Assembly: GCA_028282925.1 (NCBI GenBank)
Contig: JANQGV010000260.1
Coordinates: 1 to 63,069, forward strand
DNA length: 63,069 nucleotides
Reading direction: 5' to 3'
DNA from: Thermodesulfobacteriota bacterium
GTDB lineage: Bacteria > Desulfobacterota > WTBG01 > CAIYCZ01 > CAIRTM01
Below the pieces are notes generated by a model. That model saw only the letters and a list, made by a program, of their open reading frames with translations. It ran no database searches and had not been told where the DNA came from. The translations under genes were made by a program, and so were the position numbers. This document shows positions 4,508 through 27,292 of the stretch, piece after piece (within the stretch, counting starts at the first letter, position 1; every line of letters starts with the position of its first letter).

Positions 4508-4566
4508 GTGTTCCTCCTGTCTCTATATGACATGTATCTGTCATGCCGACGGTTGCTGTCGGTCAT

Positions 4567-6054: not shown

Positions 6055-6099
6055 ACTTCCTCCTTGTTTAACCAGGGTTAACAAACCCGGTGGGTGCGA

Positions 6100-6285
6100 C
6101 TACGATTCCTGTCCCTCCGTTGCATAGGGAGCGCCGACCGGGCACACCTGCACACAGATCATACACTCAACACACTTGTCATTGTCTACGGTTACCGTAT
6201 CGTCAATCATCCGGATAGCCGTTTTCGGACACAGATCGATACAGCCGCCGCACACCAGACACTCTTCAGTATTAATGTGTACCAT
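6100..6285 (-). CDS. 2x[4Fe-4S] ferredoxin (61 aa)
   Basis: Two CxxCxxCxxxCP motifs: CLVCGGCIDLCP and CVECMICVQVCP. Confidence 0.85.
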   Translation of the reverse strand: MVHINTEECLVCGGCIDLCPKTAIRMIDDTVTVDNDKCVECMICVQVCPVGAPYATEGQES

Positions 6286-6415: not shown

Positions 6416-6463
6416 CGAAGGATGAGCGCAACGCAGTAGATGGGCGTTCTCCAGCGGTTTCCT
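6416..6463. repeat. 47-nt intergenic repeat, copy 1 (REP-like)
   Basis: cgaaggatgagcgcaacgcagtagatgggcgttctccagcggtttcc aligns with copies at 27400-27446 and 31806-31852. It contains a short AACGC..GCGTT hairpin. Confidence 0.6.
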
Positions 6464-7007
6464 AATCTTTTTTGCCGACTATGTACTCCCCCTCAAAAGC
6501 AATATACTTAATTGCTATTCCTTTAACCCCGGCATATCCGGGATAGACGTCACCGTATACTTCAACGGTTCTGCCCACCATGGGCACCATGGTGGCCCAG
6601 GTAAAAAGACCTTCACGTTTCTGCTCGGGCGTTAAAACCCGTGGCATACGATATGCCTGGGCGCTCTGGGTAACGGCTTGGCCCCTTGGTAGTGTGGGGT
6701 AATAGAGTGTGCCGTCGCCTGCCAGCAAAAATATCTTGCTGTTGCGCTCGGCGCTTCGCTTTGCATTTTCAAGTTCTTCAGCGGTATAGGGCCTCTCCTG
6801 GGGCACCGTAGTTCCGTTGAAAAGAGAGTTTCCTTCCACAAACACCCCTTTAATGGTCTTACCGTCCCGGGAAGCGGCGAAAAACACCTCTTCCATGTTT
6901 TTTACCTTTTCCGCATGCTTTTCCTTATAGTTCTTGTCTTCGGCCCGGGTTGTTCCAGCCAGGAGTACTGCAAAAACAATACAGCATAGTATAAGTACCT
7001 GTCGCAT
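6462..7007 (-). CDS. secreted hypothetical protein
   Basis: ATG at 7007 is preceded by GGAGG. MRQVLILCCIVFAVLLAGTTRAEDK looks like a signal peptide. I recognise no family. Confidence 0.55.
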   Translation of the reverse strand: MRQVLILCCIVFAVLLAGTTRAEDKNYKEKHAEKVKNMEEVFFAASRDGKTIKGVFVEGNSLFNGTTVPQERPYTAEELENAKRSAERNSKIFLLAGDGTLYYPTLPRGQAVTQSAQAYRMPRVLTPEQKREGLFTWATMVPMVGRTVEVYGDVYPGYAGVKGIAIKYIAFEGEYIVGKKD

Positions 7008-7055
7008 AGCGTATTCCTCCTTACGCATATCCATAACGTATGTGGAACGGTTTTT

Positions 7056-7928
7056 TCAGGTAATATCCTTTGACTCGATCATGCCGTCCTTCCGCCGGCG
7101 CAGGTCTTTAACAATCAGATACGTGGATATAACGAATCCGGCGATAATCACCGACATGATGGTCCAGTTGATATGCACCCACGGCTCTTTGAGCATACCC
7201 CATTTGGCCAGAATTTCGATATCGTTCCAGAGAATCGTTACTGTTGGTATGGCATACCTGAGATTTGCCCCGAAGCGGTCATAGCCCAGCAGTTTGTAGC
7301 ACAGGTAAAAAAAGACTGAAAATGAAGCGAAAAAGAGCACATAGATAAACCAGGAGTGAGCCCCGAACAGCTCTTCATCATAGCCGATCATCAGCATGAC
7401 GTAGAAGGTCCAGGTGACCATAATATATTCAAAAGCGGTACGGGGACCGTAGTTACTGATTTTGCCGGTGGCTATCGCACCCCGCATCAGCCGCAGCTTG
7501 CGCCGCAGGAAAAAAATGAAATTACACCGAACGCTCTCCTGGAACAAAAGGTAGACGAAGACCATGATCAGGAGCATAAAGGTCCATTTCATCATCCGGT
7601 ATTCAGGGTAGCTGCCGTTCCAGGTATAGGTTACCCCCAGCCGGTGTCCGCCGTACATGAGGCTGTATTCAAAGGCGAACCAGAGCCCCAGGCCGCCGAG
7701 GCATCCGATGAAGCTCTGCCATCCGTCGGATTTCATAAAACGGGTGGAATAGATTGCGAAAAAGCCGACCAGGGCGGACGTCCAGGCGAAATCATACTTG
7801 ATGCCCGGGTTGTATTTCTCGATCAGCACCATCACGATATGCCCGATGGCTGAAAGTCCGAAAATCCACACCAGGGATATCGTGGTATAAAATATTGCTT
7901 TGAATGAAATCGGTTTCTTTGTAGCCAA
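7056..7928 (-). CDS. polytopic integral membrane protein, unknown family
   Basis: 290 aa with about 8 hydrophobic segments rich in W/F/Y. Same strand as its neighbours and tightly spaced. Confidence 0.6.
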   Translation of the reverse strand: MATKKPISFKAIFYTTISLVWIFGLSAIGHIVMVLIEKYNPGIKYDFAWTSALVGFFAIYSTRFMKSDGWQSFIGCLGGLGLWFAFEYSLMYGGHRLGVTYTWNGSYPEYRMMKWTFMLLIMVFVYLLFQESVRCNFIFFLRRKLRLMRGAIATGKISNYGPRTAFEYIMVTWTFYVMLMIGYDEELFGAHSWFIYVLFFASFSVFFYLCYKLLGYDRFGANLRYAIPTVTILWNDIEILAKWGMLKEPWVHINWTIMSVIIAGFVISTYLIVKDLRRRKDGMIESKDIT

Positions 7929-7984: not shown

Positions 7985-8455
7985 TTACTTGATTAAAAGA
8001 CTGTCCTTTGCTTTTGATAAAAACCGGGCTACCGTTTCAATCGACTGCACAAACTCCTTGATTTCAGGACTGCTCAACTCCTGGAGGAATTTCTCGAGTT
8101 CCTGACGCCGGACGTTCATCACATGCTTTACCATTTTCATGCCTTCAGGTGTCAGATGCACCCGCACGACCCGTCTGTCTTTGTCGTCCCGCTGCCGATC
8201 GAGCAGGCCGTTTTGTATCAGCCGGTCGACCATGCTGGTCATGGTTGAAACCGAGACGGCATGGGCCCGGCTCAATTCGGTCATGGTAAACTGCTCCTGA
8301 TCGGCAAAACTGGCAAGCACCTTTATCTGGGAAGACGTCAGGTCCACTTTAAGCAACTGGGTGGGGTTGATGCTTCTCGAAATGGCGTTATACGCTTTGA
8401 GAATCCGGCAGATTGAGGCATCCCAGTTGTTTTCCTCCGAGGGTTTCTTTTTCAT
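7985..8455 (-). CDS. MarR-family transcriptional regulator
   Basis: Winged-HTH segment FTMTELSRAHAVSVSTMTSMVDRLIQNGLLDRQRDDKDRRVVRVHLTPEG. ATG at 8455 with AGGAG upstream; the ORF-track start at 8482 is a TTG. Confidence 0.85.
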   Translation of the reverse strand: MKKKPSEENNWDASICRILKAYNAISRSINPTQLLKVDLTSSQIKVLASFADQEQFTMTELSRAHAVSVSTMTSMVDRLIQNGLLDRQRDDKDRRVVRVHLTPEGMKMVKHVMNVRRQELEKFLQELSSPEIKEFVQSIETVARFLSKAKDSLLIK

Positions 8456-8541
8456 ACCCGGCTCCTTTTCATACCCCGGCAAAACAGGTATTTTGTTCTG
8501 CTTTCAAATCATTATTTTATTTAATATTTAGACTATCCAAC

Positions 8542-8625: not shown

Positions 8626-9948
8626 TCACGAAATATCTTCAAGTGTTTCCGCCATAACGTCGGAAGGAAACATCATCATCTTACCCGCCAGTTGCTGGAG
8701 CATTTCGGGCCGCTCCTGCATGATCCGGGGCATAACCCCCTGCAGGCGCGCGCCAAGCAGGCCCACGGCGGTATACGGATTAAAGGTCGGCGGAAACGGC
8801 TCTTTCAGAAGGCTGAAAACATAGTCGATTATTTCTGGTTGCGAAAAGATATAGGCTATCCCGAAAATCGACAGATAATCCTGGTAATCGTACTGCTTGA
8901 TATAGGTATTGAGCCACCAGTCTGAATACTGGTCGACGGCCCGGGGCGGAATACCCAGTTGCTGTTCTTTAAGCGCGGTTGCAATGGCCAGGCCGCCTTT
9001 CCAGCCGGTGAGCATGGCCCCCAGGCACTCCAACTCCTGACAGGCCCCGGCATCGCCCACGATCAGCACATTATTGCGAAACGGCTTTATTATCGGAGAA
9101 AGAATCGACTCTATTGCGGCAAAATCACGGACATTCTCCGCATTTTTAAACCAGTCGGCATAGTTGGGGTGGGTGGTTATGTGCGTGTAGGCCTCCTCAA
9201 GATCAACACTGCCTTCCAGGGTCAGGATCAGAAAATTCCATTCATCATCTTCAGGCCGCGGCAACAGGAAGATATATACCGGTTTATCGTGCAAAAACGT
9301 TACGGCCGTAATAATGGAATTTTTATATGGAGGGTTAAACCCTTTAATGAAGCAGGACTTGACATACAGGTTGGCGATCAGCCGCCGATTTGTATTATAC
9401 CCCAGGGCCTCAACAACCCGTGAATTGGCCCCGTCGGCGGCGATAACGCTGGTGGCTTGAAACTGTTTGTCTCCGGCCACCACCACAACGCTTCCCGGAC
9501 CCGGCTGGAGCATGGTAAATTCCGTCTCAGGGAAAATATCAACATGGTTGCTCCGGACCTCTTCCAGGAGACACTTGAGCATGATTTCCTTGTCGTAGGA
9601 AAGAGCTATGGGAGCACCGTTTTCATCGCCGGAGCCGAACTGCAGCTTGTTCATGCCGGGAGAATGCATATGCCACGTATACAGGTTCTTGACCGCGCCG
9701 GTATACGGAAAGGACAGACCGGTGCTTGCATAGCAAAACCGTTTGTCTTTTTCATTATAGTGAAAAATATCACCGAAAAAATACTCATTGGGCGGCAGCA
9801 GCGACTGACCGCAGGTACGGCTGACACTGCTCAGGTCCTGCTTCCGGTCGATGACGGCAACATCAAACCCGTTTTGAGCAACTGCTTTGGCGGCAAGCAG
9901 GCCTGCCGGACCCGCCCCGACCACCACTACATCATATCGTTCTTTCAT
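8626..9948 (-). CDS. FAD-dependent oxidoreductase, GGR-like (paralog 2)
   Basis: Motifs RYDVVVVGAGPAGL, RTCGQSL, AADGANSRV, VGDAGAC and ERPEMLQQL. ATG at 9948 with AGGAGA RBS; the ORF-track extension to 10026 is unlikely. Confidence 0.8.
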   Translation of the reverse strand: MKERYDVVVVGAGPAGLLAAKAVAQNGFDVAVIDRKQDLSSVSRTCGQSLLPPNEYFFGDIFHYNEKDKRFCYASTGLSFPYTGAVKNLYTWHMHSPGMNKLQFGSGDENGAPIALSYDKEIMLKCLLEEVRSNHVDIFPETEFTMLQPGPGSVVVVAGDKQFQATSVIAADGANSRVVEALGYNTNRRLIANLYVKSCFIKGFNPPYKNSIITAVTFLHDKPVYIFLLPRPEDDEWNFLILTLEGSVDLEEAYTHITTHPNYADWFKNAENVRDFAAIESILSPIIKPFRNNVLIVGDAGACQELECLGAMLTGWKGGLAIATALKEQQLGIPPRAVDQYSDWWLNTYIKQYDYQDYLSIFGIAYIFSQPEIIDYVFSLLKEPFPPTFNPYTAVGLLGARLQGVMPRIMQERPEMLQQLAGKMMMFPSDVMAETLEDIS

Positions 9949-10059
9949 AACATATCTCCTTTCGTATGGACGCACCGCTGAGCGGAAACGCACGCTACGG
10001 TCTACAATTCGTATGGTTACCTGCATGCAGCCCGGTTCACTGCATACCCATCAAAACCG

Positions 10060-11415
10060 TTAATCAAACTCCCGTACCGGTGTGCATGCCTCGGTGGTGG
10101 AAGCCAGTATTTCCGACATTGGCGATGCCATCCGGGCCAGCTTGGCCATCATCTCTGGGCGTTGCTGCTGAATTGCCGGCATAACCTGCTGCATAAGGCC
10201 TCCCAGGTGCTTAATTGCGGCATAGGGATTCCAGCACGGGGGCAGCGGTTCTTTTACCAGGCTGCATAAAAAATTAAAATCCTCAGCCGTGTCCAGCACG
10301 TACGGCATGGCGAAATTCATGATATAGTCCTCGTGAGAGCAGGCGTCCAGGTAAACGGATTTCCACCAGCACACATATTCCTCAAGCGCCCGCTGCTGAA
10401 TACCACCCCCCTCTTCCTTCACCGCTGCGGCCACGGCATTGCCGGCTTTCCAGCCGCTGATCATGGCCCCCGAATTCTCAAGCTCCTGGCAGGCCCCGGT
10501 ATCGCCGGCCAGCAGCACCCTGCCGTGCAAAGGCGCCTCTATCGGGGAATACACATACTGCGCCGATGCAAGCTGCTGCAGTTTTTCAGCTTGGGAGAAC
10601 CAGGGAGCAAAAAACGGGTTGTGGCTCATGAAATAGTCGGCAACATCGTCCAGGTCTACCCTGGGATCAAGGGCCAGAAAGGCCACCGTTGCCTGACCGT
10701 CATATGGACGGGGGAAAATGAACATATACCCCGGCGCCGGGCCTTCATAGCAGATACTGGAAATCAGGATATCGCTGTCGGGAAACCGCACATTGCTCAT
10801 ATACCAGCCCTTGCACAGCAAATAGGAATAGAGTTCCCGCGATGCATTGCAGCCCAGCAGGCGGGCGATACGCGAGTTGGTCCCGTCGGCGGCAACGGCA
10901 TACCGCCCGTTAAACACTTTTCCGCTGCCGGAGACCTGCACCCCATCGGCTGTCTGCTCCACTTCGTCTACATCGATACCGGCAAAAACGTCCACCCCGG
11001 CCTGCTGCACTTCATCAAGCAAATCCTGAAAAAGTATCTGTTTGTCGTAGGCGAGGCCGACAGCGGCATGCACGCCTTTCGTGCGGTTTTCTTCCGGAAG
11101 ACCGAAAGCCAGGCGAGAACCGTCGGGAGAAAAAACATTCCAGGCATACAAGTGTTTTACCGGACCGGAATAAGGAAACGAAAGGCCGCCGGACAGAAAA
11201 GAAATCCGTTTTCCCGCCGGGTTATACTGTATCAGTTCATCGAAGTAATAATCGTTGAGTGATACCAGGGTCTGACCGCACATGCGGTCCAGTCGGGCAA
11301 TATCCGTCTTACGCTCAAGCAGCGCAACGCTGCAGCCGGCAGTGCCGGCCTGCCGTGCGGCCAGCAGTCCGGCCGGCCCGGCACCAATAACAATAACATC
11401 AAATTGTTTAGTCAT
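10060..11415 (-). CDS. FAD-dependent oxidoreductase, GGR-like (paralog 3)
   Basis: Motifs QFDVIVIGAGPAGL, RMCGQTL, AADGTNSRI, AGDTGAC and QRPEMMAKL. GYMFIFPRP resembles the GGR YxWxFP motif. Confidence 0.8.
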   Translation of the reverse strand: MTKQFDVIVIGAGPAGLLAARQAGTAGCSVALLERKTDIARLDRMCGQTLVSLNDYYFDELIQYNPAGKRISFLSGGLSFPYSGPVKHLYAWNVFSPDGSRLAFGLPEENRTKGVHAAVGLAYDKQILFQDLLDEVQQAGVDVFAGIDVDEVEQTADGVQVSGSGKVFNGRYAVAADGTNSRIARLLGCNASRELYSYLLCKGWYMSNVRFPDSDILISSICYEGPAPGYMFIFPRPYDGQATVAFLALDPRVDLDDVADYFMSHNPFFAPWFSQAEKLQQLASAQYVYSPIEAPLHGRVLLAGDTGACQELENSGAMISGWKAGNAVAAAVKEEGGGIQQRALEEYVCWWKSVYLDACSHEDYIMNFAMPYVLDTAEDFNFLCSLVKEPLPPCWNPYAAIKHLGGLMQQVMPAIQQQRPEMMAKLARMASPMSEILASTTEACTPVREFD

Positions 11416-11468
11416 CTACATCCACCATGTACGTCTTTGCGCGAGAGAGGTTGATCTCGCCGGTTTCA

Positions 11469-12827
11469 TTATGTATTGGGAAAACCACTTTCAATAATGT
11501 TCCGCATCTGTTCCTCAATGGGCATGGCACCCAGGCTTTGCAGCTTGGCGATAATATCAGGCCGCTCCCCCTGGATTTTGGGCATATTCCGCATGATGGC
11601 CGCATTGACATTGTTGAAAAGATTGTACGGATTGAGTGAACACGGCAGCGTATCAGTGACAAGGCCGTATAGATAGGTTGCCATGTCCTCTCCAACCAGA
11701 CCTGATGTCAGAACGGTCAGAAACTCGGTATAATCCATTGAATCGGTGAAGTGGTGCTTCCACCAATCGATATAATTCTGCACGCCCTCTTGGTTCGGCT
11801 TATGCTCCCGCAAGGCTTCCGACACGGCATGGGCGGCTTTCAGACCCGACATCATCGACATGGTACACTCGGCCTCCACCGTCCAGCCCGCATCGCCGGT
11901 AATCAGCACGTTGTCCTTGAACGGTGTGGGTGCCGGCGACCAGATGTTGGCGACATGGGCCTGTTTTCGTTGCAGTTCGGCATCGGCAAACCAGTTTGAA
12001 AACGAGCTGTCGGCTATGCAGCGGTCGAGTTCGGCTTTGTAATCGATGTCCGGATGAGAGGGCCCACCGGCATACACCCAGTACTCGTCCTCACCATACG
12101 GGCTGGGCTCAACCCAGATCATGATGGGATACTGGGTGGTTTTGTGAAAAAGCTGCGGAAACAGTATGGCCTCGGGGTGCGGTAGACTCAGCCCCGTCAT
12201 ATAGTAACTGACGCCGACCAGGGTGCCGAAAAATGAGCGTTCCTTATTGAGGCCGAGAAGTTTCATCATACGCGAGTTGATGCCGTCGGCCGCAATGGTA
12301 AAAACGCTCCTGAATTCATGCCCTTCCGCGGTAATGAGATGATTGACGTCGCCCTCGCGCCGGTGATCGATAACGTTTGCACCGGTGAACATCTTTACGC
12401 CGGCTGCTTCGGCATCGGCCAGCAGGTTTTCCAGCAATTCCTTCTTGCTGTAGGTAACCGAAAGACGGCCCTTATTTCCTTTTTGCACATTCGCGTCATA
12501 GTCGCCGACCTTGATATAGTGACCGGCATCCGGTGTATACACGTGCCAGGCGTAAAAGTTTTTGTATGGCCCGGTATAAGGCAATGAAAACCCGGTTACA
12601 GGAAACACCAGCCTGCCCTGCTCCTCGTTAAAGTACATCCGCTCACCGAAGTAATACTCATCTTCGATGGCAAACATCGTGGCACAGCTACGCTGAATCG
12701 CCGTAATATTTTCTTTGCGCTCCAGCAAAGCAACACTCAGCCCGTTTTCCCCTGCAATTTTTGCCGCCATCAATCCGGCCGGTCCACCTCCAACTACTGC
12801 TACATCATATACGTCCGCCATGTTCAT
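11469..12827 (-). CDS. FAD-dependent oxidoreductase, GGR-like (paralog 4)
   Basis: Motifs VYDVAVVGGGPAGL, RSCATMF, AADGINSRM, TGDAGWT and ERPDIIAKL. Confidence 0.8.
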   Translation of the reverse strand: MNMADVYDVAVVGGGPAGLMAAKIAGENGLSVALLERKENITAIQRSCATMFAIEDEYYFGERMYFNEEQGRLVFPVTGFSLPYTGPYKNFYAWHVYTPDAGHYIKVGDYDANVQKGNKGRLSVTYSKKELLENLLADAEAAGVKMFTGANVIDHRREGDVNHLITAEGHEFRSVFTIAADGINSRMMKLLGLNKERSFFGTLVGVSYYMTGLSLPHPEAILFPQLFHKTTQYPIMIWVEPSPYGEDEYWVYAGGPSHPDIDYKAELDRCIADSSFSNWFADAELQRKQAHVANIWSPAPTPFKDNVLITGDAGWTVEAECTMSMMSGLKAAHAVSEALREHKPNQEGVQNYIDWWKHHFTDSMDYTEFLTVLTSGLVGEDMATYLYGLVTDTLPCSLNPYNLFNNVNAAIMRNMPKIQGERPDIIAKLQSLGAMPIEEQMRNIIESGFPNT

Positions 12828-12932
12828 CTCCCTCGTAAACAGTGTTAAAAACGTCCAACTCTTCTTATCTAATAAAAAAAGTGCTTCATCTGCGACATCG
12901 TTGTCAACGACCGTGTACGTGTCACCGCAGCT

Positions 12933-14258
12933 TTAAACCGTTTTAAATCCCCAGCTGATCCGTTCCTTCAAATCATCGTCCATATTTTCACGCACCTTGA
13001 TCATGCGGTCCATGGTGTCCGGCCGCTCATCATAAATACGTGTCAGCAAATCGGCATAGGTTTTACCGATGCAATTCACCACTCTAAAGATATCCATGGT
13101 CTGGGGGAACTCCTCATCGGGCAGTCCGGCCAGGTAGTCGATATCCTCCGGGGTCAGGTACTGGGTGAAATCGCGGCCGCCCTGTTTGCGTTTGCCGAAC
13201 GGACCATAATAGTGCTCCTCATACCAGTCAAGATACTCGCGCAGGCCTTCCTCGTGAATGGCCCCTTCGTTGAGGGCCCGGGCAACAACCGTGCCGGCCT
13301 TCCAGCCGGAACACAACGAACCCACATTACTCATTTCCCGCCGCCAGCATGCATCACCGATAAACAGAATGTTGTCCTGATAAGGGTTTTCCAAAGGGCT
13401 CATGAGGGTGACGACACAGGCGGTCCGGTGTTCGAGCACCCGTGAATTCCGGTACCAGGCGGAAAAGGTCGGGTCTTCATGTATAAAATAGTGCATGAGT
13501 TCCGGCGGTTTCAGGTCCCGGCGATACGTGGAGGCATATATGTGATAGCAGTTCTTTTCAGCCACCGGTATCATCGAATAGATACTTTTGGGGGTGATCA
13601 TAAAGAGGAATCCGTCGGGGTCGGGACATTCCGTTCCTTCCACCATGACCGACACATCCCGGGTCGTTCCGTAAAATTCACGCGCTTTATTGAGCCCCAT
13701 GGCACGGGCTATTCGTGAGTTGATGCCGTCGGCCGCAACAAGAAATGTCCCGAATAGTTCCCGGCCGTCGTCACACACCGCTACGGCTCCCCCCGGTTCC
13801 TTTCGCACGGAAGAAATATTTGTATTCGGAAATACGGAAACGCCGCTCTTTTCGGCTGCTTCAAGCAACCCCCGCAGCAGTTGTTCTTTACTGACCGACA
13901 CACCCAGCCTGTTTTTTGCGGGGTCTTTTCGCAGCTCCCCGAAATTACCGAACTCCAGACGATTTCCTCCGGGAGAGTAAATCTGGAAACCGAACACATC
14001 CTGGTGAGGGCCGTCATACGCTATGTGTGTGCCCAGTTTTTCAAAAGTAATTTCATGACGGTTTTCATCAAACCGGACAATTTCATCGTAGGTCGGCTCA
14101 TTCACATTGAGCACTCCGCCGCATGACCGGTGAATCTTGGGGATATCTTTCTTGCGCTCCACCAGCGCTACCCGCACTCCCTCTTCTCCCAGGGCTTTGG
14201 CCGCCATGAGGCCCGCAGGCCCGGCCCCCACTATCACAACATCATATTTCGACGTCAT
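12933..14258 (-). CDS. FAD-dependent oxidoreductase, GGR-like (paralog 5)
   Basis: Motifs KYDVVIVGAGPAGL, RSCGGVL (closest to the GGR CGG motif), AADGINSRI, IGDACW and ERPDTMDRM. ATG at 14258 with AAGGAGGG RBS. Confidence 0.8.
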   Translation of the reverse strand: MTSKYDVVIVGAGPAGLMAAKALGEEGVRVALVERKKDIPKIHRSCGGVLNVNEPTYDEIVRFDENRHEITFEKLGTHIAYDGPHQDVFGFQIYSPGGNRLEFGNFGELRKDPAKNRLGVSVSKEQLLRGLLEAAEKSGVSVFPNTNISSVRKEPGGAVAVCDDGRELFGTFLVAADGINSRIARAMGLNKAREFYGTTRDVSVMVEGTECPDPDGFLFMITPKSIYSMIPVAEKNCYHIYASTYRRDLKPPELMHYFIHEDPTFSAWYRNSRVLEHRTACVVTLMSPLENPYQDNILFIGDACWRREMSNVGSLCSGWKAGTVVARALNEGAIHEEGLREYLDWYEEHYYGPFGKRKQGGRDFTQYLTPEDIDYLAGLPDEEFPQTMDIFRVVNCIGKTYADLLTRIYDERPDTMDRMIKVRENMDDDLKERISWGFKTV

Positions 14259-14318
14259 TCGAATCCCTCCTTCATCTATGGGTAAACAATTCCGTCTGGG
14301 AACAACCACTGCATAACG

Positions 14319-14771
14319 TTATTTGACTTCATCACTGAACGCTTTGTCCATTATCTGACAAACGGTACTTAACGAAGTCAGCAGGCGTTTACGGTCCCGT
14401 TCATTCAGCTTGGCAAACAACTCACGCGCGATCTCCTGCCGTTCAGACAAAAAGTCTGCCCGCAGTTTCTTCCCCTTGGGCGTCAGCCACACGATAACCT
14501 TGCGACGGTCATGCTCGTCGCGGTCGCGCTCTACGATACCTTCCTGCAAAAGACCGTCGATCATCATGGTCATATTGGGCAGTTTTACCCCGATGTTATA
14601 TGCCAGTTCTTTCATGGACAGCCGGTCCCTGTCGCGAAAAGCATAGAGCGCCTTGATTTGCGAAAGTTTCAAATCGGTTTTCACCTTCGGATTACCGTCT
14701 ATGATCCGGCGTGAATACACTTGTCCGAAATTACGCAACAGGCTCAAATAATTTAAAAGCTCCTTTTCCAT
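14319..14771 (-). CDS. MarR-family transcriptional regulator
   Basis: Segment LSMKELAYNIGVKLPNMTMMIDGLLQEGIVERDRDEHDRRKVIVWLTPKG. Its ATG is only 7 nt after the stop of the upstream GGR-like gene. Confidence 0.85.
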   Translation of the reverse strand: MEKELLNYLSLLRNFGQVYSRRIIDGNPKVKTDLKLSQIKALYAFRDRDRLSMKELAYNIGVKLPNMTMMIDGLLQEGIVERDRDEHDRRKVIVWLTPKGKKLRADFLSERQEIARELFAKLNERDRKRLLTSLSTVCQIMDKAFSDEVK

Positions 14772-14778
14772 GTACCTC

Positions 14779-16107
14779 TCATCTGTATGCAGGAAAGCCT
14801 GCTCGAGTTGCGGGTTTCATCATCGGCACCGCCCGGTCGGGTGAAAACTGCTTGAGTTTGGCGGCAAGCCGGGGCTGCTCCTTTTGTATACGCTCCATAT
14901 GGGGTTTCAGCCCCTGCATAATATGCCCATACAGATTAAACGGGTTCAGCGACCAGAACAGCGGTTGTGTTATCAGTTGATGTACATAATTCAACTCGTC
15001 TTCGGTAAATATCCTGAAGAAAACCGCATAGCAGAGAAAATCCTGATAATTGTGGGTTCCCGGGAAATGGATCCGCCACCAGGAAATGTAATCCATAACC
15101 CCTTCCCGATCGGCCGTGCCGGAGTGCAGGGCTTTACAGACCGCCATGGCCGCCTTGTGCCCGGAAAGAAGCGCGCCGGTATTTTCGGCTTCGGCAAACC
15201 AGCAACTGTCGCCCACAAACAGGATATTATCTTTAAACGGTTCCCGAGCCGGCCCCCAGGCACTGATAACCGCACAGCGTTTGTGCCCGACCTCGACACC
15301 GGAGAACCATTTCCGAAACGTGCTTTTGCGGGTAAAGTAGTCAAGCTTTTCGTCCCCGCCGATGTACAGCCAGTACTCATCCTCATGGTACACGCTGGGC
15401 AGCATGCAAAAGTGTACCGTCCCCAGCCCCCCGTCATCAAAACAGTTGCCCATGCATATCATTTCGGAACGATCAAACGAAACGCCGCTAACATAGTAAC
15501 TGGTCGAACCGGCGGTGAATAAAAAGGTCCTCTCTTCATTCAAACCGCTCAGCCTCGCCAGGCGCGAGTTGATACCATCGGCGGCGATACAAAAGGTACC
15601 GGTGCAGGTATCACCTTCACTGGTCTTAATGGTAACACCACCCCGGTCGCTGCTCACGGTTGTTACATTTCGTTCCAGGAAGAAATCCACACCCGCCGCC
15701 AGTCCGCCGTCATACAGTCCGCGCAACAGGGCGCCTTTATCGAATACCACTGCCGCGGTACCGCCGTCGGATGCGTTTTTTTCATAGTCGCCGATTTCAA
15801 TGCGGTCTTCGGCGTTCGGGGCGATAAAATGACACCCGTAGAACTCCCGGTAGTCCCCGCCGTAGTCAACGGTGAAATTGTTCACAGGGAATACCCATTT
15901 CCGTTGCTCACGCGAAAAATACATCCGCTCGTTATAAAACGAGTCCATATTCATCAAAAACATCTGGGCGCAGGCACGCTGGATCTTCGCCGGGTCGGTT
16001 TTGCGCTCGAACAAGGCAACGCGCAATCCGTTTTCCGCCGCTGTTTTGGCTGCCTCAAGACCGGACGGCCCGCCTCCCACAACAATAAGGTCATATTTCT
16101 TCGTCAT
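14779..16107 (-). CDS. FAD-dependent oxidoreductase, GGR-like (paralog 6)
   Basis: Motifs KYDLIVVGGGPSGL, RACAQMF, AADGINSRL, VGDSCWF and EQPRLAAKL. I chose the ATG at 16107; the ORF-track start at 16116 is a GTG. Confidence 0.8.
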   Translation of the reverse strand: MTKKYDLIVVGGGPSGLEAAKTAAENGLRVALFERKTDPAKIQRACAQMFLMNMDSFYNERMYFSREQRKWVFPVNNFTVDYGGDYREFYGCHFIAPNAEDRIEIGDYEKNASDGGTAAVVFDKGALLRGLYDGGLAAGVDFFLERNVTTVSSDRGGVTIKTSEGDTCTGTFCIAADGINSRLARLSGLNEERTFLFTAGSTSYYVSGVSFDRSEMICMGNCFDDGGLGTVHFCMLPSVYHEDEYWLYIGGDEKLDYFTRKSTFRKWFSGVEVGHKRCAVISAWGPAREPFKDNILFVGDSCWFAEAENTGALLSGHKAAMAVCKALHSGTADREGVMDYISWWRIHFPGTHNYQDFLCYAVFFRIFTEDELNYVHQLITQPLFWSLNPFNLYGHIMQGLKPHMERIQKEQPRLAAKLKQFSPDRAVPMMKPATRAGFPAYR

Positions 16108-16161
16108 GGAAATCACTCACAACCGTATAGTGTTTATTCACCGTCAGTCACGTTTCAGGCC

Positions 16162-17487
16162 CTACCTGTTCGGAAATCCCATCCGGGCTGCAGGCTTAAT
16201 CAGGTCCAAAACCAGTTCGGGACGAAACATGCCGATTTTCTTTGCAAGCGCGGGGCGCTCCCTGCCGACCTGTTGCATGTGCGGTTGCAAACCACGCATA
16301 ATGCGGTCGTACAGTTTGAATGGATTCAGGGTCCATGGAAGCGTCGCCTTCACAAGGCCGTGCAGATAGTTGTACTCTTCCTCATTAAACATCCGGTTAA
16401 ACAGCGGGTAACACAGAAAATCGCGGTAATCATGGGTTTCGGTCCAGTTTTGCCGCCACCAGGATATATACCCCTCCACACCGTTTCGGTCCGGCAAACC
16501 CCGGTGCAGTGCTTCGCTTACGGCGCAGGCAGCCCGGTGTCCCGAGAGCAGCGCGCCTGAGTTTTCCGCTTCCGAAAACCAGCAACTGTCACCCACAAAC
16601 AGGATATTCTCCTTGAACGGCTCCCTGGCCGGGCTCCAGTTGTTCACCACGTTTACCCGGGTATGGGTAATTTCCAGGTCTGGAAACCAGTGCCGAAACG
16701 AACTTTCCCGGGTGAGAAAACGAAACTGCTCATCCCCGCTCACAAACAGCCAGTATTCATCGTCACGATACACACTGGGCAGCAGGCAGAACGGCACCGG
16801 ACCGAGACCGCCCCGGTCCCAGCTCATGCCGAGGAAGATTGCTTCCGAACGGTCAAAGGAGATTCCGGTGACATAGTGACTGATTGATTTACGGGTATTG
16901 ATAAATCGGCGCTCCCGGTTCAGCCCGGACACTTGTGCCAGGCGGGAATTTATACCATCGGCTGCGATGCAGAAGGTGCCGCGCAAATGGTCCCCTTCGG
17001 CGGTCTTCACGCTGACCCCGCCGTTTTCCCTGCTGGCGGAAACAACATTCCGCTCAAGAAAAAAGTCGACTCCGGCCCGTTCACCCTCTGAGAACAACCC
17101 TCCGAGCAATACGCCTTTATCAAAAACAACAGCGGCCGTGCCATGGCCGGATGCGTTCTTTTCGTAATCGCCGATCTCGATGCGGTCCTCGGCATTGGGG
17201 GAGATAAAATGACAGGCGTAAAAGTCGCGGTACGGCCCGTTGTAGTCGACGGTAAAATTGTTGACGGGGAAGACCCACTTGCCCTTGTTCGGTGCAAAAT
17301 ACATCCGCTCGTTATAAAACGAGTCCATGTTCATTAAAAACATCTGGGCGCAGGAACGCTGAATTTTTGCCGGATCGGTCTTGCGCTCCAGCAACGCTAC
17401 CCGCAGCCCGTTCATGGCCGCGGTCTTTGCCGCCTCGAGCCCGGCCGGCCCGCCTCCCACAACAATCACATCATACACGGCACTCAT
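16162..17487 (-). CDS. FAD-dependent oxidoreductase, GGR-like (paralog 7)
   Basis: Motifs VYDVIVVGGGPAGL, RSCAQMF, AADGINSRL, VGDSCWF and ERPALAKKI. About 75-80% identical to paralog 6 by hand alignment. Confidence 0.8.
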   Translation of the reverse strand: MSAVYDVIVVGGGPAGLEAAKTAAMNGLRVALLERKTDPAKIQRSCAQMFLMNMDSFYNERMYFAPNKGKWVFPVNNFTVDYNGPYRDFYACHFISPNAEDRIEIGDYEKNASGHGTAAVVFDKGVLLGGLFSEGERAGVDFFLERNVVSASRENGGVSVKTAEGDHLRGTFCIAADGINSRLAQVSGLNRERRFINTRKSISHYVTGISFDRSEAIFLGMSWDRGGLGPVPFCLLPSVYRDDEYWLFVSGDEQFRFLTRESSFRHWFPDLEITHTRVNVVNNWSPAREPFKENILFVGDSCWFSEAENSGALLSGHRAACAVSEALHRGLPDRNGVEGYISWWRQNWTETHDYRDFLCYPLFNRMFNEEEYNYLHGLVKATLPWTLNPFKLYDRIMRGLQPHMQQVGRERPALAKKIGMFRPELVLDLIKPAARMGFPNR

Positions 17488-17543: not shown

Positions 17544-18614
17544 TTAAAAATCCGCAAGTCCGAACTCCTCCATATCATACCTGAAGCCCGAAAGCAGATC
17601 CCATGCCCTTCCGCCGCTCTCAGTCCGGGCAATTGCGCCCTGGGCACCGACGATCAATCCGTGCTGCTCATTATTAAAAGCCACTTCGCGCAGCCAGAAT
17701 TTCGTCTTTATCAATCCGTCCCTGACCGACCAGGTTTCGCCGCCGTTGTCTGATTGCAGATATACTCCCTTGTTTCCCACAATCCAGCCCCGATTGCCCT
17801 GTACCGCCAGCGAATACAACGGCTTATCCGTACCTGATTCGATTTTTTCCCAGTTGACACCTCCGTCAACAGTCTTGAGGATGACCCCGTCCATCCCCAC
17901 AATCCAGCCCCGTCTGCGATCGAGAAAATACAAACCGTATAAAGCCGGCAGCGGGCGCTCCCATTCAAATGCACCGGCCTGCGGCACAATATCCCGGCAC
18001 TCCTGGGGAGTCCAGGTTGCGCCATCGTCGGTTGTGTGCAATATGGTACCGAACTCTCCCACGATCCAGCCGAATGACTCGTCGACAAAAAACACATCAT
18101 TATAGAGCGTGTCCTGGGGCTCTCGCTGCTCGGACCAGGTAGAACCCCCGTCCGCGGTATGAATAACGGTACCGAATTCTCCTACCGCCCACCCTTTCTT
18201 TGCATCGAGAAAGAACAGATCCAGAATATTACTGTCGGTCCCGGTGTTCTGCTCCTGCCAGGTAGTACCGCCGTCAACGGTGTGCACGACCCTGCCGCCT
18301 ACCCCGCCGGCCCATCCCCGCTGCCGGTCTACAAAGGTAATCGTGCACAGCAAAAAATCAGATATACCGCTTTTTTGCGGCTGCCAGTTTTTGCCCCTGT
18401 CGGCACTGAACAAAATAGTCCCGTAATTTCCACAGACCCAGATATGCTCGGCATCTACATAGGCAATGCTGTGCAGATTTTCCGTGGTCACAAAATCAAA
18501 TTCGGGCATTTTGATCTTGGAACGGTCGAATTTCCCGCAGCCGGTCATACACATTATGGCCTGAAAAGCCAGGACCCAGCCGATAGCCGCGAAGAGGTTG
18601 TTGTACTTTATCAT
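17544..18614 (-). CDS. BNR/Asp-box repeat lipoprotein, Ycf48/HCF136-like beta-propeller
   Basis: Seven (D/S/N)GGxTW-like repeats: DRGKNW, DGGTTW, DGGSTW, DDGATW, DGGVNW, NGGETW, SGGRAW. The signal MIKYNNLFAAIGWVLAFQAIMCMTGC carries a Cys lipobox. ATG at 18614. Confidence 0.75.
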   Translation of the reverse strand: MIKYNNLFAAIGWVLAFQAIMCMTGCGKFDRSKIKMPEFDFVTTENLHSIAYVDAEHIWVCGNYGTILFSADRGKNWQPQKSGISDFLLCTITFVDRQRGWAGGVGGRVVHTVDGGTTWQEQNTGTDSNILDLFFLDAKKGWAVGEFGTVIHTADGGSTWSEQREPQDTLYNDVFFVDESFGWIVGEFGTILHTTDDGATWTPQECRDIVPQAGAFEWERPLPALYGLYFLDRRRGWIVGMDGVILKTVDGGVNWEKIESGTDKPLYSLAVQGNRGWIVGNKGVYLQSDNGGETWSVRDGLIKTKFWLREVAFNNEQHGLIVGAQGAIARTESGGRAWDLLSGFRYDMEEFGLADF

Positions 18615-18648
18615 ATGGCTACTTTCCACGTTGCGGTCGCGCATATAA

Positions 18649-19905
18649 CTAATAGCTTCTCACCTTCAGGCTTTTCACCTGAAACAGGGTCAGGGGTATC
18701 TCTATGCCGATACCCTTGATTTCCCGGTTACCGGGACTTCCATGGTGCCGGATAAAATCAACAATATGCTCACCGTTGAAAAGGGCTGTTTGCTCCCCGC
18801 CGTATGACGGATAGACATTGGTATACATCTCATACATCTTCCAGAGCTGGCCCTGGCGGTTGTACATTACTTTAAAATTCATCTGCCAGGTCTCCGGGTC
18901 GAGATACCAGACCTGCTTGCTGTAAACATAGTCCGGCTCTTTACTGACGACCTCCACCACCCAGTGATTGACGCGCTCCCGCTGGACACCGCTCCAGAAT
19001 CCCTGGCCGGTAATGCGCTCCAGTTTTGCCGGGTCCTGGTGGCGGGCAAACAGCAGGTCTTTTCTTCCCAGGTATTTATATGTATTATGGCCAAGGTGAG
19101 TATACCAGCCGTCCTGATCGTCATAAATCATATCGGTTCCGTCGATCGTGTCGGTCCGCTGGCTGGTGGCATAGCGCCTGATACGCCGAAACATGGCGGT
19201 ATACACCCATAAATCGGTTGCCCGTGTCAGGTCCTTATATTTCAGCTCGAGCATGGTGGTGTCCACAAAGTCGGCCGGGGCGGCATGCCGCTGAAAAAAC
19301 GAAAGAGTGATATCCCGGGGGTTGTCCTTTTTGCTGAATTTCGGTACCGGCGGAACATCATAGCGTCCCATCCAGCGCATTTCCCAGCGCAGCTGTTTTG
19401 CATCACGTTCGTGCCTGGTACGACAATCGACAACCGTGCCGGTATGTATGATGTGATGGCTGTCTCCTTTGGTATTGGAATCGAAGTTCCATGCCATCTC
19501 AGCCCCGGTTGTGGGCTGGGGAAAAGGGATACCGGCAACGTCGCCATACCCCACCAGGTCGTTGTTAACATCCAGGCTCCCCGGGGCGTGCTTTTTGGTG
19601 GCCGCGATCATGCCCTTTGTTACCGGGAGGGGCTTATAGGGGACGATCTCAAACCAGATGGATTCGGCGCCGAAGATCGACGGCTCTTTAACAGCTTTAT
19701 ATACCGCTTCATGCAGATACTCCTTTACCTGGTCGACATTCTCGGCCGTGATTTTTTTACCGGCCCATGTTTTTTCCCATTCCCTGACGTTCCGCAGTTC
19801 ATCGCCTTCATATGAGGGCACGGGGAAACGAACTTCGCCGGCGTGCACCAGCGACACGCATACGACTCCCAGGATGCAGCTGCTGAAAATGCGAAATAAT
19901 TTCAT
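18649..19905 (-). CDS. DUF1329-family (LolA-like, outer-membrane lipoprotein-sorting-like) periplasmic protein
   Basis: Signal peptide plus AGIPFPQPTTGAEMAWNF and FRRIRRYATSQRTDTIDGTDMIYDD, which resemble DUF1329 signatures I recall. It holds the canonical position next to a DUF1302 gene. Confidence 0.65.
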   Translation of the reverse strand: MKLFRIFSSCILGVVCVSLVHAGEVRFPVPSYEGDELRNVREWEKTWAGKKITAENVDQVKEYLHEAVYKAVKEPSIFGAESIWFEIVPYKPLPVTKGMIAATKKHAPGSLDVNNDLVGYGDVAGIPFPQPTTGAEMAWNFDSNTKGDSHHIIHTGTVVDCRTRHERDAKQLRWEMRWMGRYDVPPVPKFSKKDNPRDITLSFFQRHAAPADFVDTTMLELKYKDLTRATDLWVYTAMFRRIRRYATSQRTDTIDGTDMIYDDQDGWYTHLGHNTYKYLGRKDLLFARHQDPAKLERITGQGFWSGVQRERVNHWVVEVVSKEPDYVYSKQVWYLDPETWQMNFKVMYNRQGQLWKMYEMYTNVYPSYGGEQTALFNGEHIVDFIRHHGSPGNREIKGIGIEIPLTLFQVKSLKVRSY

Positions 19906-19953
19906 AAAAACATCTCCTCATCATAAGGTGAGTGTAAACGGCTGACCATTGTC

Positions 19954-21579
19954 TTAAAACTCATACCCGATCCGAAAATAGATCGAATCTTTGTTTTCGG
20001 CATAGGCCTCCTTGGAATCATGCGGGTCCCGGGCAAAAAACCAGAGGTAGCCAAGCTCATAGCGCATATGTTTTCCGGGCGTATACCGCATGGCAAATAC
20101 ACCGTAGCCCCAGTTGCGGGTATTATACAGGAACCGCATCGTGGGCCACAGCTCGTTATGCCGCAGTTTGCCGCGAACCGTCAGGGTGAAGTTACACTGC
20201 GAGCGGTCCTGGTAGCCGAAGGTCGACCGCCAGCGGGTTACATTCCCGAGGCGCCACTGCCCGAACCAGCCCATGGTCACATCAAGCACTCCGCTTGAGC
20301 CCCAGCGCTGCGCCAGCCAGTTCCAGCGCACCGGCCGGTCAAAGGTGATACCGACATTGATCTGGTCGCGCTCGCTGGTGCCGGTAATCGGCTTTTCACC
20401 GCCGGGTGTCGGATCGATGTGCAGCGGATACGCCTTGTTGATCGGCAGCCCGATTTCATAGGAGAACTCGCCGCGCACCACTCCTTTCAGGGCCGGAACA
20501 AAGGTCTGGCAGCTTGCGCCGACAGCGTCAAAAAACTTGTAGCGCCAGAAACTGTCGTGGGTAAGGTGCGGCAGTGCGAAGCCCAAAACCCGGCTGGGAA
20601 ATGCGTTGCGGGTGAGATACCCGTTGAGGGTGCGGATGTTGAAATTGCCGGTGGGGTTGCCGCGGGTTTTATTGCGGGCGACCGGGGTGCTGTTCATGCC
20701 GTGATACCAGCTCACCGTCCAGTCCAGCAGATATATTTCGCCGAACAGCGACACTTCCGAATTACCGCGGATCCTGAAGGCCCATTGGGAATTACGCAGC
20801 GTAAAGGCCGGCCGGGCCCGGTGAAACATGCGGTTTACCGCCGCGCTCTGGCCGAAAGGCCGGGGGCGCCGGTACTTGGGGCCCTGCGGCGCAGGGATGG
20901 CACCCATGCTGGTTCCTTCCATCGGGGAACGCACCTGCTCGAAATCTCCCGGAATCCAGATCCACTCAAACACGAGCTGGCCGGGCAGGTTGGAGTTGTA
21001 AAACCCCCGCATCATCCACAGCCCCAGCTTCATCTCATCCCAGGGGTCGATTCCCGGGGTGGTGTAGCGCAGATCGAGTGGGTTGATCCGGTCGATGGTG
21101 CGCACCATTTCAACTTCACTCCAGAAAACGATCTGCTTGCCCAGTCGGATATTCCAGTTGCCGAAATAAATGTCGGCATAGAGTTCATTGATCCAGTCAT
21201 CCTGGTCATAAAACGGCCCCTGGTACCGTTTATGGTTGCGCCGCTCGATGCTCCGTTTATATTCCTGGTCAAAATCGGGAACCCCCTCATGCCACCACTG
21301 GAAAAAACCGAACAGGTTGATCATGACATCCTTGTTTTCAACCGCTTTGTACAGCAGCTCAAGGGTACCCTTTGTGCGCATCAGCCCCCAGTCGGTATCG
21401 CGGTACTGACGCTCTTCACGCTTCAGGTCGGTACGATACATCATAAATTCGTACAGACTGCCCTTTATCCTGAGTTTGCCGTCCAGCACGTGGTATGCGG
21501 CATCGCTCGGTTCGGGAACGAGCACATACCCTGCGGCAAGAGCGGCCAAAAACAAAAACCAGGTATATTTTTTCATCAT
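19954..21579 (-). CDS. DUF1302-family outer-membrane beta-barrel protein
   Basis: Signal peptide MMKKYTWFLFLAALAAG. Alternating aromatic/hydrophilic pattern and C-terminal ...YFRIGYEF (terminal Phe, as in OM barrels). Confidence 0.65.
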   Translation of the reverse strand: MMKKYTWFLFLAALAAGYVLVPEPSDAAYHVLDGKLRIKGSLYEFMMYRTDLKREERQYRDTDWGLMRTKGTLELLYKAVENKDVMINLFGFFQWWHEGVPDFDQEYKRSIERRNHKRYQGPFYDQDDWINELYADIYFGNWNIRLGKQIVFWSEVEMVRTIDRINPLDLRYTTPGIDPWDEMKLGLWMMRGFYNSNLPGQLVFEWIWIPGDFEQVRSPMEGTSMGAIPAPQGPKYRRPRPFGQSAAVNRMFHRARPAFTLRNSQWAFRIRGNSEVSLFGEIYLLDWTVSWYHGMNSTPVARNKTRGNPTGNFNIRTLNGYLTRNAFPSRVLGFALPHLTHDSFWRYKFFDAVGASCQTFVPALKGVVRGEFSYEIGLPINKAYPLHIDPTPGGEKPITGTSERDQINVGITFDRPVRWNWLAQRWGSSGVLDVTMGWFGQWRLGNVTRWRSTFGYQDRSQCNFTLTVRGKLRHNELWPTMRFLYNTRNWGYGVFAMRYTPGKHMRYELGYLWFFARDPHDSKEAYAENKDSIYFRIGYEF

Positions 21580-21654
21580 ACCCCCTTTACATCAGGCAGA
21601 AGTGCCCCCTGCACTTGTGCTCTCGGGTTCACAAACGTCATGCACATCGGCTTT

Positions 21655-21710
21655 AATACGGTTAAGTAAAAACTTCGGCTTTAATACGGTTAAGTAAAAA
21701 CTTCGGCTTT
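21655..21710. repeat. perfect 28-bp tandem duplication (2 copies plus 8-nt partial third) across the RND gene stop
   Basis: aatacggttaagtaaaaacttcggcttt occurs at 21655-21682 and again at 21683-21710. tcggcttt at 21647-21654 is a partial copy. Confidence 0.95.
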
Positions 21711-26911: not shown

Positions 26912-26913
26912 AG

Positions 26914-27276: not shown

Positions 27277-27292
27277 ATTCAATAGCTCCTAC

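Follow-up and report, generated by a model that had tools for sequence, protein, structure and literature searches.

The island and its seven flavoproteins

The 63,069-bp contig JANQGV010000260.1 of a Thermodesulfobacteriota bacterium (assembly GCA_028282925.1), analysed here over its whole length and referred to as the window, contains a 23.6-kb island of 20 minus-strand genes that runs from 24088 down to 490 with gaps of 4–176 bp. Seven of these genes encode paralogous flavoproteins related to geranylgeranyl reductases (GGRs), which we label A to G. Read from its upstream end, the island comprises an MMPL/HAE3-type RND transporter, a DUF1302 protein, a DUF1329 protein and a BNR/Ycf48-like protein, followed by paralogs G and F, a MarR regulator, paralogs E, D, C and B, another MarR regulator, the genes unk290 and unk190, a ferredoxin, two VAO-type flavoproteins (VAO505 and VAO550), paralog A and an NmrA-like reductase. 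A further, conserved gene, which encodes a 150-aa protein, is cut by the contig end.

The seven paralogs are located at 1446–2777 (A, 443 aa), 8626–9948 (B, 440 aa), 10060–11415 (C, 451 aa), 11469–12827 (D, 452 aa), 12933–14258 (E, 441 aa), 14779–16107 (F, 442 aa) and 16162–17487 (G, 441 aa). A previous reading of the sequence without database searches (the sequence-only reading) had proposed seven minus-strand open reading frames (ORFs) at these coordinates, and all of them are present, with lengths of 440–452 aa. The mechanically defined ORFs of B, E and F extend further upstream (to 10026, 14309 and 16116, respectively); the starts chosen in that reading for these three genes agree with the lengths of their orthologs (439–442 aa). 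Pairwise identities between the paralogs are 26–41%, reaching 67% for the F/G pair, over ~440 residues and with E-values of 1e-42 to 1e-52, far above chance; judging from this 67% identity, G is a recent duplicate of F.

The set of motifs attributed earlier to the seven proteins is indeed common to all of them. It comprises a dinucleotide-fold motif, YD(V/L/I)xV(V/I/A)G(A/G)GP(A/S)GL, whose G(A/G)GP(A/S)GL part is found in every copy, as are R-x-C, AADGxNSR, GD(A/T/S) and, near the C-terminus, (E/Q)(R/Q)P...K(L/I). The R-x-C heptads had been quoted exactly, the segment reading RSCCCNL in A, RTCGQSLLPP in B, RMCGQTL in C, RSCATMF in D, RSCGGVL in E and RACAQMFLMN in F. Altogether, 39 columns of the alignment are invariant, including the G.GP.GL fold and, in paralog A numbering, R42, C44, the AADG.NSR block, G308–D309, E315 and P419. 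The (V/I/A)GD motif is invariant as well, and an invariant lysine aligns with the arginine of the GGR motif RxxFD, the FD being replaced by L(L/F). As for the YxWxFP motif, the occurrence of GYMFIFPRP in paralog C holds (the segment continues as GYMFIFPRPY), but the motif is degenerate in most copies: it is recognisable only in C (PGYMFIFPRP) and B (PVYIFLLPRP), and D (with MIWVEPSPY), E, F, G and A keep little beyond the proline. Note that PxxYxWxFP was also found to be poorly conserved in a survey of archaeal paralogs (PMC10821996). Finally, what had been described as a C-terminal extension of ~100 aa is mostly ordinary GGR domain, because it aligns with the helical domain of Thermoplasma GGR up to residue ~391/397; only the last ~30–40 residues, which carry ERP(D/E), are specific to the clade and additional to the archaeal enzymes.

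Pfam recognises in the seven paralogs generic FAD folds alone, mainly FAD_binding_3. The top NCBIfam match is TIGR02032 (GG-red-SF) for all seven, with scores of 68.9–99.6 bits against a cut-off of 158.8; the proposed membership of the GGR family thus stands as the closest match and falls short of the family threshold. The broader placement in the GGR/FixC branch of the PHBH fold is borne out, both by this match and by the structural data bank. A profile of the seven paralogs retrieved Thermoplasma GGR (3oz2) first from the PDB (E 3.5e-21, aligned over 88–391), and 3oz2 was again the best Foldseek match (E 6e-24, TMt 0.75) of an AlphaFold2 model of E built with 21 orthologs (pLDDT 88.2, pTM 0.88), followed by flavin halogenases, FixC and Sulfolobus GGR. 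The predicted structure matches the GGR fold, including its C-terminal helical domain. The sequence-only reading had pointed to the flavin-side cysteine of archaeal GGRs, and the cysteine of R-x-C aligns with that of R-C-G-E-G in 3oz2; archaeal GGRs keep this residue, without which the Sulfolobus enzyme (Cys47) does not function (PMC10821996).

The NCBIfam models for BchP/ChlP, MenJ, DGGGPL reductases, FixC and Ubi-hydroxylases gave only 24–57 bits. More specifically, BchP/ChlP (TIGR02023), MenJ (NF045655) and DGGGPL reductases (NF041080, NF041160) were rejected with 25–47 bits against cut-offs of 343–780, with no photosynthesis or men genes nearby for the first two, and FixC/electron-transfer-flavoprotein (ETF)-quinone oxidoreductase with at most 32 bits for NF007542 against a cut-off of 610 and no ETF genes in the island. 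BchP/ChlP, MenJ and FixC do share with the array proteins the GGR superfamily and its N-terminal FAD fold, but their models score 24–39 bits against cut-offs of 343–700 and the photosynthesis, menaquinone and ETF genes that would go with them are missing from the neighbourhood.

The same searches bear on the idea that the proteins are not substrate reductases at all, but O2-dependent PHBH-type hydroxylases, flavin halogenases or electron-transfer proteins like FixC and ETF-QO. Halogenases (CtcP, PltA and Bmp2), UbiI and FixC come just under GGR in the Foldseek and PDB lists, and AADGxNSR is shared with flavoprotein hydroxylases, of which it is also the DG fingerprint. We nevertheless regard this idea as very improbable: the hosts are Desulfobacterota metagenome-assembled genomes (MAGs) and the partners low-potential ferredoxins, ETF genes are absent from the island, the FixC, Ubi-hydroxylase and halogenase models remain far under their cut-offs and mostly cover the N-terminal dinucleotide fold alone, and the WxWxIP motif of halogenases is missing from the paralogs.

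Compared to archaeal GGRs (Ta0516/3oz2, Sulfolobus 3atq/4opc and the Methanosarcina enzyme), the array proteins have a similar single-FAD PHBH-type fold with a C-terminal helical domain, a flavin-side cysteine that appears equivalent from the alignment, a GD...D/E motif and a small ferredoxin encoded at the locus, and they occur as several paralogs, as discussed for archaea. They differ in being only 16–20% identical to these enzymes and under the TIGR02032 cut-off, in their degenerate PxxYxWxFP and in the replacement of RxxFD by KxxL(L/F). Their setting is also different: they are bacterial and form 4–7 tandem orthologous groups in a regulated island with transport and VAO-type genes and without lipid-synthesis genes.

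Orthologous arrays and the probable ferredoxin partner

The sequence-only reading had called for a search of the same array in other Desulfobacterota, and syntenic clusters were found in other MAG contigs (designated below by L numbers). Each paralog has a 1:1 ortholog there, with 61–76% identity and with gene order kept. The A orthologs, which are 57–64% identical, are located after VAO550; A usually follows the second VAO-type gene, with its own 54-aa ferredoxin ahead of it. The number of paralogs varies among genomes from 4 to 7. L091 carries E, D, C and B alone, which identifies these four as the core set; F is either single or duplicated (F/G), and L092 and L097 have an eighth group, H, encoded after a NIR_SIR/Fer4 protein.

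The divergence between copies had been taken as a sign of sub-functionalisation, and the comparison of syntenic orthologs (61–76% identity) with paralogs (26–41%) agrees with this. Each group displays its own signature: RTCGQSLLPP, PVY(I/V)FLLPRP and GDAG(A/S)CQELECLGA for B, and RSCGGVLN, I(Y/F)SMIP and GDACWRREMSNVGS for E, all strictly conserved in orthologs. Since syntenic orthologs have each kept their own conserved motif signature, the copies seem to be old and sub-functionalised. The group-specific motifs sit at the RxC segment, at the equivalent of YxWxFP and at the GDxxWxxE block, and alignment to GGR suggests that these segments are flavin-facing and substrate-positioning regions.

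In a HMMER search of 1.84 billion representatives, 151 clusters (at 50% identity) were retrieved at E <= 1e-30, 2,590 at 1e-10 and 25,224 at 1e-3; that only 151 clusters pass the strictest threshold indicates a small, well-separated clade. Its members mostly have R-x-C, and some have R-x-D, R-x-N or R-x-S. A single-copy sister clade, 40–44% identical to E, displays R-x-D-G-G, with an aspartate in place of the cysteine (L088, L090 and L007). Homolog searches with E, VAO550 and A returned only MAG proteins, with no functional name and no isolate among them, and a GTDB scan with the alignment of E orthologs returned mostly unrelated flavoproteins through the generic GxGPAGLMA pattern and no cultured host. 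Literature searches found no description of the array, in line with the earlier statement that it could not be mapped to a described pathway. We take the array to consist of GGR-type reductases whose genomic setting is both new and conserved, and we give a modest chance to the idea that the entire island encodes a new pathway.

GGRs are the classic enzymes for the reduction of unactivated C=C bonds. The ferredoxin that had been put forward as their partner at this locus is real: it is encoded at 6100–6285 on the minus strand and has 61 aa with two CxxCxxCxxxCP motifs, as expected for a 2x[4Fe-4S] protein. Its orthologs, 61–65% identical, are present in every array cluster. The single-copy family members have a ferredoxin of 54–69 aa directly upstream, and because the more distant single-copy relatives (42% identity, with R-x-D) always have one of 57–66 aa there, ferredoxin plus flavoprotein appears to be the minimal module. 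The GGR of Methanosarcina requires a ferredoxin encoded at its own locus (PMC10821996). The island's ferredoxin is probably, to judge from its sequence and position, the electron donor of the flavoproteins.

A housekeeping role may also be considered, in which the proteins would saturate the isoprenoids of the host itself (polyprenols, isoprenoid lipids or the side chain of menaquinone), in the manner of MenJ, the archaeal GGR paralogs and BchP. Membership of the GGR superfamily is consistent with such a role, as is the wide distribution of single-copy ferredoxin–flavoprotein modules in Desulfobacterota MAGs, and archaea with several GGR paralogs are thought to use them to saturate different terpenoids (PMC10821996). 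This role is improbable, however: the island has no prenyltransferase, men or lipid-synthesis gene, the presence of two MarR regulators and of an RND system for apolar compounds speaks for a response induced from outside the cell, paralog content differs from genome to genome (4 to 7 copies), and the MenJ, DGGGPL-reductase and BchP models are far under their cut-offs.

Partners of the array

The sequence-only reading of the array had overlooked the neighbours that constrain its function most: the Ame/'Nanopod'-type cassette, the MarR regulators, the unk290/unk190 pair and the two VAO-type proteins. The four genes upstream of G (17544–24088) are adjacent and co-directional, with gaps of 4–82 bp, and together provide all four components of an AmeABCD cassette: an MMPL/HAE3-type RND inner-membrane transporter of the AmeD type (21662–24088; Pfam MMPL, 7e-33; NCBIfam HAE3 TIGR00921, 179 bits, under the cut-off), a DUF1302 outer-membrane protein of the AmeA type (19954–21579; Pfam DUF1302, 1e-11), a DUF1329/LolA-like periplasmic protein of the AmeB type (18649–19905; Pfam DUF1329, 3e-38) and a BNR/Ycf48-like β-propeller of the AmeC type (17544–18644; Pfam PSII_BNR, 8e-42). 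An AmeABCD-type cassette is associated with monoterpene tolerance in Castellaniella (PMC6394551), and a DUF1302/DUF1329/RND 'Nanopod' cluster has been proposed to move benzene in ORM2a (PMC13101534). The window and Castellaniella defragrans have in common the DUF1302 outer-membrane protein, the DUF1329/LolA-like protein, the COG4447/Ycf48-like BNR protein and the HAE3-type RND pump, as well as the position of the cassette within an island for an apolar substrate, a putative one in the window. They differ in gene order, which is D-A-B-C in the window, and in the partners, which in Castellaniella are CtmAB-type (phytoene-desaturase-like) enzymes.

Regulation points in the same direction. The 165-aa MarR regulator (7985–8482, minus strand; Pfam MarR, 5e-14) is encoded directly upstream of unk290 or of the ferredoxin in all array clusters, and the 150-aa MarR regulator located within the array (14319–14771, minus strand; Pfam MarR, 6e-11) is kept between F and E in L001, L003 and L131. 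A promoter-like site lies ahead of the 165-aa gene, at 8570–8542; promoter and terminator scans of the window gave nothing above shuffled expectation. Because an Ame/'Nanopod'-type cassette, MarR or PadR regulators directly upstream and 20 genes on one strand occur together, the substrate is likely to be apolar and the system inducible.

The 165-aa MarR gene is followed by unk290 (7056–7928), a polytopic membrane protein, and unk190 (6462–7034), an exported or membrane-anchored protein, both on the minus strand and neither with a Pfam or NCBIfam match. Unk290 is 65–87% identical in 80 metagenome loci, even where other genes are only 40–46% identical, and unk190 is paired with it in 67 of 78. 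The metagenome scan revealed four contexts for unk290: (i) the full array island; (ii) a series made of a flavodoxin-like protein, FMN_red, a 479-aa ferrochelatase-like membrane protein, PadR and unk290/unk190, then genes of the NuoE/NuoF/Fer2 type (identified by length and order, as in L094), a ferredoxin and one GGR-like gene; (iii) MarR, unk290/unk190, the RND cassette and a VAO-CCG-VAO trimer, with no GGR-like gene in view; (iv) unk290/unk190, a Kdo/WaaP-like kinase and F/G-like genes. The unk290/unk190 pair therefore looks like a hub linking the flavoproteins, the trimer and the transporter. Recurrent neighbours of 604, 106 and 139 aa have no Pfam match. In L094 (1403–16637; GCA_024276465.1), two NuoE/NuoF/Fer2_4 sets are interspersed among the trimer genes and two GGR-like genes, a layout that suggests an NADH-linked, possibly bifurcating, electron supply.

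VAO550 (2855–4507, minus strand; 550 aa, 61.2 kDa) contains the Pfam domain FAD_binding_4 alone and VAO505 (4567–6084, minus strand; a 505-aa ORF) FAD_binding_4 plus FAD-oxidase_C; the true start of the latter is probably the ATG at 6054, which would yield the 495 aa of its orthologs. In sequence as well as in fold, the two proteins are similar to PCMH, VAO, eugenol oxidase and D-lactate dehydrogenase. For VAO550, the PDB sequence matches are vanillyl-alcohol dehydrogenase, PCMH and eugenol oxidase, and an AlphaFold2 model (pLDDT 68) retrieved VAO, PCMH and D-lactate dehydrogenase with Foldseek (TM ~0.6). Orthologs are 80–84% identical for VAO550 and 60–68% for VAO505. In every orthologous cluster (L001, L091, L092, L094 and L097), a 431–435-aa CCG (HdrD/GlcF-like) Fe-S gene lies between the two VAO genes. 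In the window, tblastn found no CCG homolog anywhere, and the VAO genes are 59 bp apart (4508–4566) where a gene of ~1.3 kb would be expected, so that only the first and third genes of a GlcDEF-like trimer are present; the middle gene may truly have been deleted or may have been lost in assembly.

The trimer of the sister clusters is reminiscent of BzS1_12970/80/90 (very abundant) and of ORM2a 'Magic' #24–26, which two 2026 proteogenomic studies proposed as anaerobic benzene activators. The likeness is one of subunit types, order and sizes, as seen in the sister clusters: FAD_binding_4 plus FAD-oxidase_C (~495 aa), CCG Fe-S (~431 aa) and FAD_binding_4 only (550 aa), related to VAO/PCMH and GlcD, in Desulfobacterota and accompanied by a DUF1302/DUF1329/RND cluster. 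The BzS1 and ORM2a clusters, unlike the island, carry a CoA ligase, a hydratase, a CoA-transferase and BamQ, whereas the island has no CoA-ligase or β-oxidation genes; GGR-like flavoproteins, which the island has, are mentioned in neither benzene paper, and the window does not have the CCG subunit. Aromatic-CoA or β-oxidation genes able to name a pathway are not found elsewhere in the window either. Musat et al. noted distant syntenic homologs (23–42% identity) in NaphS2 and Desulfosarcina variabilis, which do not degrade benzene, and considered a different metabolic function likely for them. The accession prefixes of three orthologs or cluster relatives had no match in the top-100 BLAST tables of the BzS1 paper, and the proteogenomics paper on Desulfosarcina variabilis makes no mention of the relevant genes.

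Downstream of A, the island ends with an NmrA-like/NAD_binding_10 atypical SDR reductase (490–1377, minus strand, 295 aa; Pfam NAD_binding_10, 1e-20, and NmrA), whose gene order is kept in L086, L092 and L097; beyond it lies the 5' part of a gene for a 150-aa protein of unknown function (1–438, minus strand), cut by the window start and 64% identical by tblastn to the L086 gene that follows NmrA-like. The closest PDB sequences of the reductase are SimC7 ketoreductase, NDUFA9, quinone reductase YtfG and triphenylmethane reductase. Relatives of this kind, which include YtfG, triphenylmethane reductase and an angucyclinone ketoreductase, raise the possibility of a regulon for quinone, electrophile or aromatic-xenobiotic stress, in which the flavoproteins and their FMN_red, flavodoxin-like, NmrA-like, PNPOx-like and nitroreductase partners would detoxify membrane-active aromatics, C=C saturation not being the main chemistry. 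The MarR or PadR genes directly upstream of unk290/unk190, the recurrence of FMN_red, flavodoxin-like, PNPOx-like and nitroreductase neighbours and the resemblance of the VAO-type proteins to enzymes oxidising 4-alkylphenols are in keeping with such a regulon. We judge it quite unlikely all the same, since the closest fold and the aligned catalytic cysteine favour GGR-type alkene reduction and the strict conservation of 4–7 orthologous groups suggests a defined pathway of several steps and not a generic detoxification.

Relatives with other partners bring tetrapyrroles into the discussion. In L007 (873–15540), from a Danish 'delta proteobacterium' MAG, an operon encodes three BchB/BchN-like nitrogenase-type subunits, two CbiX/CfbA-like chelatases, the 479-aa ferrochelatase-like membrane protein, FMN_red, a ferredoxin and an E-like flavoprotein (42% identical), and may, from its gene content, represent a tetrapyrrole-modifying pathway not yet known. 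An ortholog of the 479-aa protein (59% identity) is encoded downstream of a full array cluster (L086:14338–15777), and the protein occurs near unk290 in 15 of the 80 metagenome loci; it is membrane-anchored, with a weak ferrochelatase match (26–29 bits, under the cut-offs), and a PDB sequence search found no match for it. In L095, an A-like gene is immediately followed by a HemF-like Coprogen_oxidas gene. In a Bacillota MAG (L009:6179–9758), two tandem A-like flavoproteins (32–33% identity) are adjoined by a divergent Fe_bilin_red-like gene and a nitroreductase.

The paralogs might accordingly be tetrapyrrole-directed reductases acting on the vinyl groups, the methine bridges or the isoprenoid tail of chlorophyll, pheophytin, haem or bilin, the island taking up and processing such pigments in anoxic sediment. 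Besides the loci just described, proteins joining PCP_red, NIR_SIR and Fer4 domains within or beside arrays speak for this proposal, as does the precedent of BchP/ChlP, the canonical bacterial GGR-family enzyme, which acts on the chlorophyll tail. Yet the ferrochelatase-like match is below threshold and without PDB counterpart, the PCP_red and Flavodoxin_5 matches are weak or faint, the enrichment comes mostly from the single L007 operon with its 42% identical relative, the island in the window contains no tetrapyrrole-type gene, and the BchP-ChlP model reaches 26–39 bits against a cut-off of 343. We therefore consider a tetrapyrrole-directed function unlikely.

The rest of the window has a different content. 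Just upstream of the island lie a class I/II aminotransferase (24353–25723) and, adjoining it, an ArsR-family regulator with an ArsP_1-type permease (25838–27282). Also encoded are an unusually long phosphoglucomutase/phosphomannomutase-family protein (27792–30008, 738 aa), with the domain III match in two separate stretches, and a 1048-aa hybrid sensor kinase (38556–41702) with at least five PAS domains, HisKA/HATPase and a receiver domain. The region 45010–58722, separate from the island, resembles an envelope/glycolipid biosynthesis region, with two Amino_oxidase-family flavoproteins (weakly PPO/HpnE/CrtI-like), PMT_2 and other glycosyltransferases, a MiaB/RimO-like protein, two SPASM/twitch radical SAM proteins, a methyltransferase and a PaaK/F390-synthetase-like ligase.

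A proposed role in the reduction of apolar compounds

The analysis establishes the family placement, the fold, the conserved motifs, orthology, synteny and gene associations, while the electron donor, the reductive direction, the C=C target and the nature of the substrate are what we infer. Our preferred interpretation, held with moderate confidence, is that the seven proteins belong to a small clade of the GGR superfamily, as yet uncharacterised, have become sub-functionalised and act as ferredoxin-dependent FAD reductases, their targets being unactivated C=C bonds of an apolar substrate. Several observations weigh against it. The TIGR02032 scores are under the GGR family cut-off; the YxWxFP motif, which positions the substrate, is degenerate in most copies; and the cysteine is not universal in the wider clade. 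Because the loci of the third unk290 context have no visible GGR-like gene, the flavoproteins may be an accessory layer of the system and not its core. In addition, because the CCG Fe-S subunit is absent, the window's copy of the island may be partly defective.

Under the preferred interpretation, the 61-aa ferredoxin, or the accessory Fe-S or flavodoxin-like proteins of related clusters, would reduce the enzyme-bound FAD, and the reduced flavin would pass a hydride to a non-activated C=C bond. This sequence of events is proposed because the Methanosarcina enzyme needs the ferredoxin of its locus and because GGRs reduce unactivated C=C bonds. The conserved cysteine, presumably beside the flavin, would donate or relay a proton, a role that would fall to the aspartate in the sister clade; the presence of Asp at the same position in that clade fits an acid/base role of the cysteine. 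Each paralog (the core set E-D-C-B as well as F/G and A) would have a double bond, intermediate or congener of its own. The MarR proteins would sense the apolar compound, the RND system would move it across the envelope (by uptake or efflux), and the trimer and the NmrA-like enzyme would carry out accompanying oxidation or reduction steps. The island would thus be an inducible system transforming an exogenous, hydrophobic, multiply unsaturated compound, for catabolism or detoxification.

Three substrate classes are candidates: an isoprenoid or polyene, as suggested in the sequence-only reading, would fit the family and the monoterpene precedent of the transporter; an aromatic or hydroaromatic hydrocarbon would fit the benzene-type trimer, the 'Nanopod' cassette and the relatives of the NmrA-like protein; and a hydrophobic tetrapyrrole is suggested by the repeated neighbours of family members, several of whose matches are weak and most of which belong to one operon. 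Taking a further and distinctly tentative step, which we think has a small chance of being correct, the island may encode a new anaerobic pathway of sediment Desulfobacterota, in which regiospecific ferredoxin-driven C=C reductases, a BeDH-like VAO/PCMH–HdrD-type complex and an envelope system cooperate. Equally tentatively, such a pathway might hydrogenate and further transform abundant hydrophobic polyunsaturated natural products, the candidates being chlorophyll- or tetrapyrrole-derived pigments, carotenoids, squalene, phytadienes and hydroaromatic hydrocarbons. If so, it would provide an enzymatic equivalent for 'diagenetic' hydrogenations that are commonly regarded as abiotic, and the benzene-associated flavoprotein family would have a wider role in the metabolism of apolar compounds.

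Few enzymes reduce isolated, unactivated C=C bonds, and GGRs, which are sought as biocatalysts, are the principal ones. The 4–7 diverged syntenic paralogs with their dedicated ferredoxin would constitute a natural panel of specificities, and the MarR regulators are of practical use, as they should bind either the substrate or a compound closely similar to it. The island also ties the clade to a GlcDEF-like trimer and to a 'Nanopod' cluster, both central in the 2026 studies of anaerobic benzene degradation; since it links the clade to both benzene gene sets, it may help to define the role of this flavoprotein family beyond benzene. Finally, the island recurs in uncultured Desulfobacterota from many metagenomes, and in anoxic sediments its substrate could represent an important sink for carbon or electrons.

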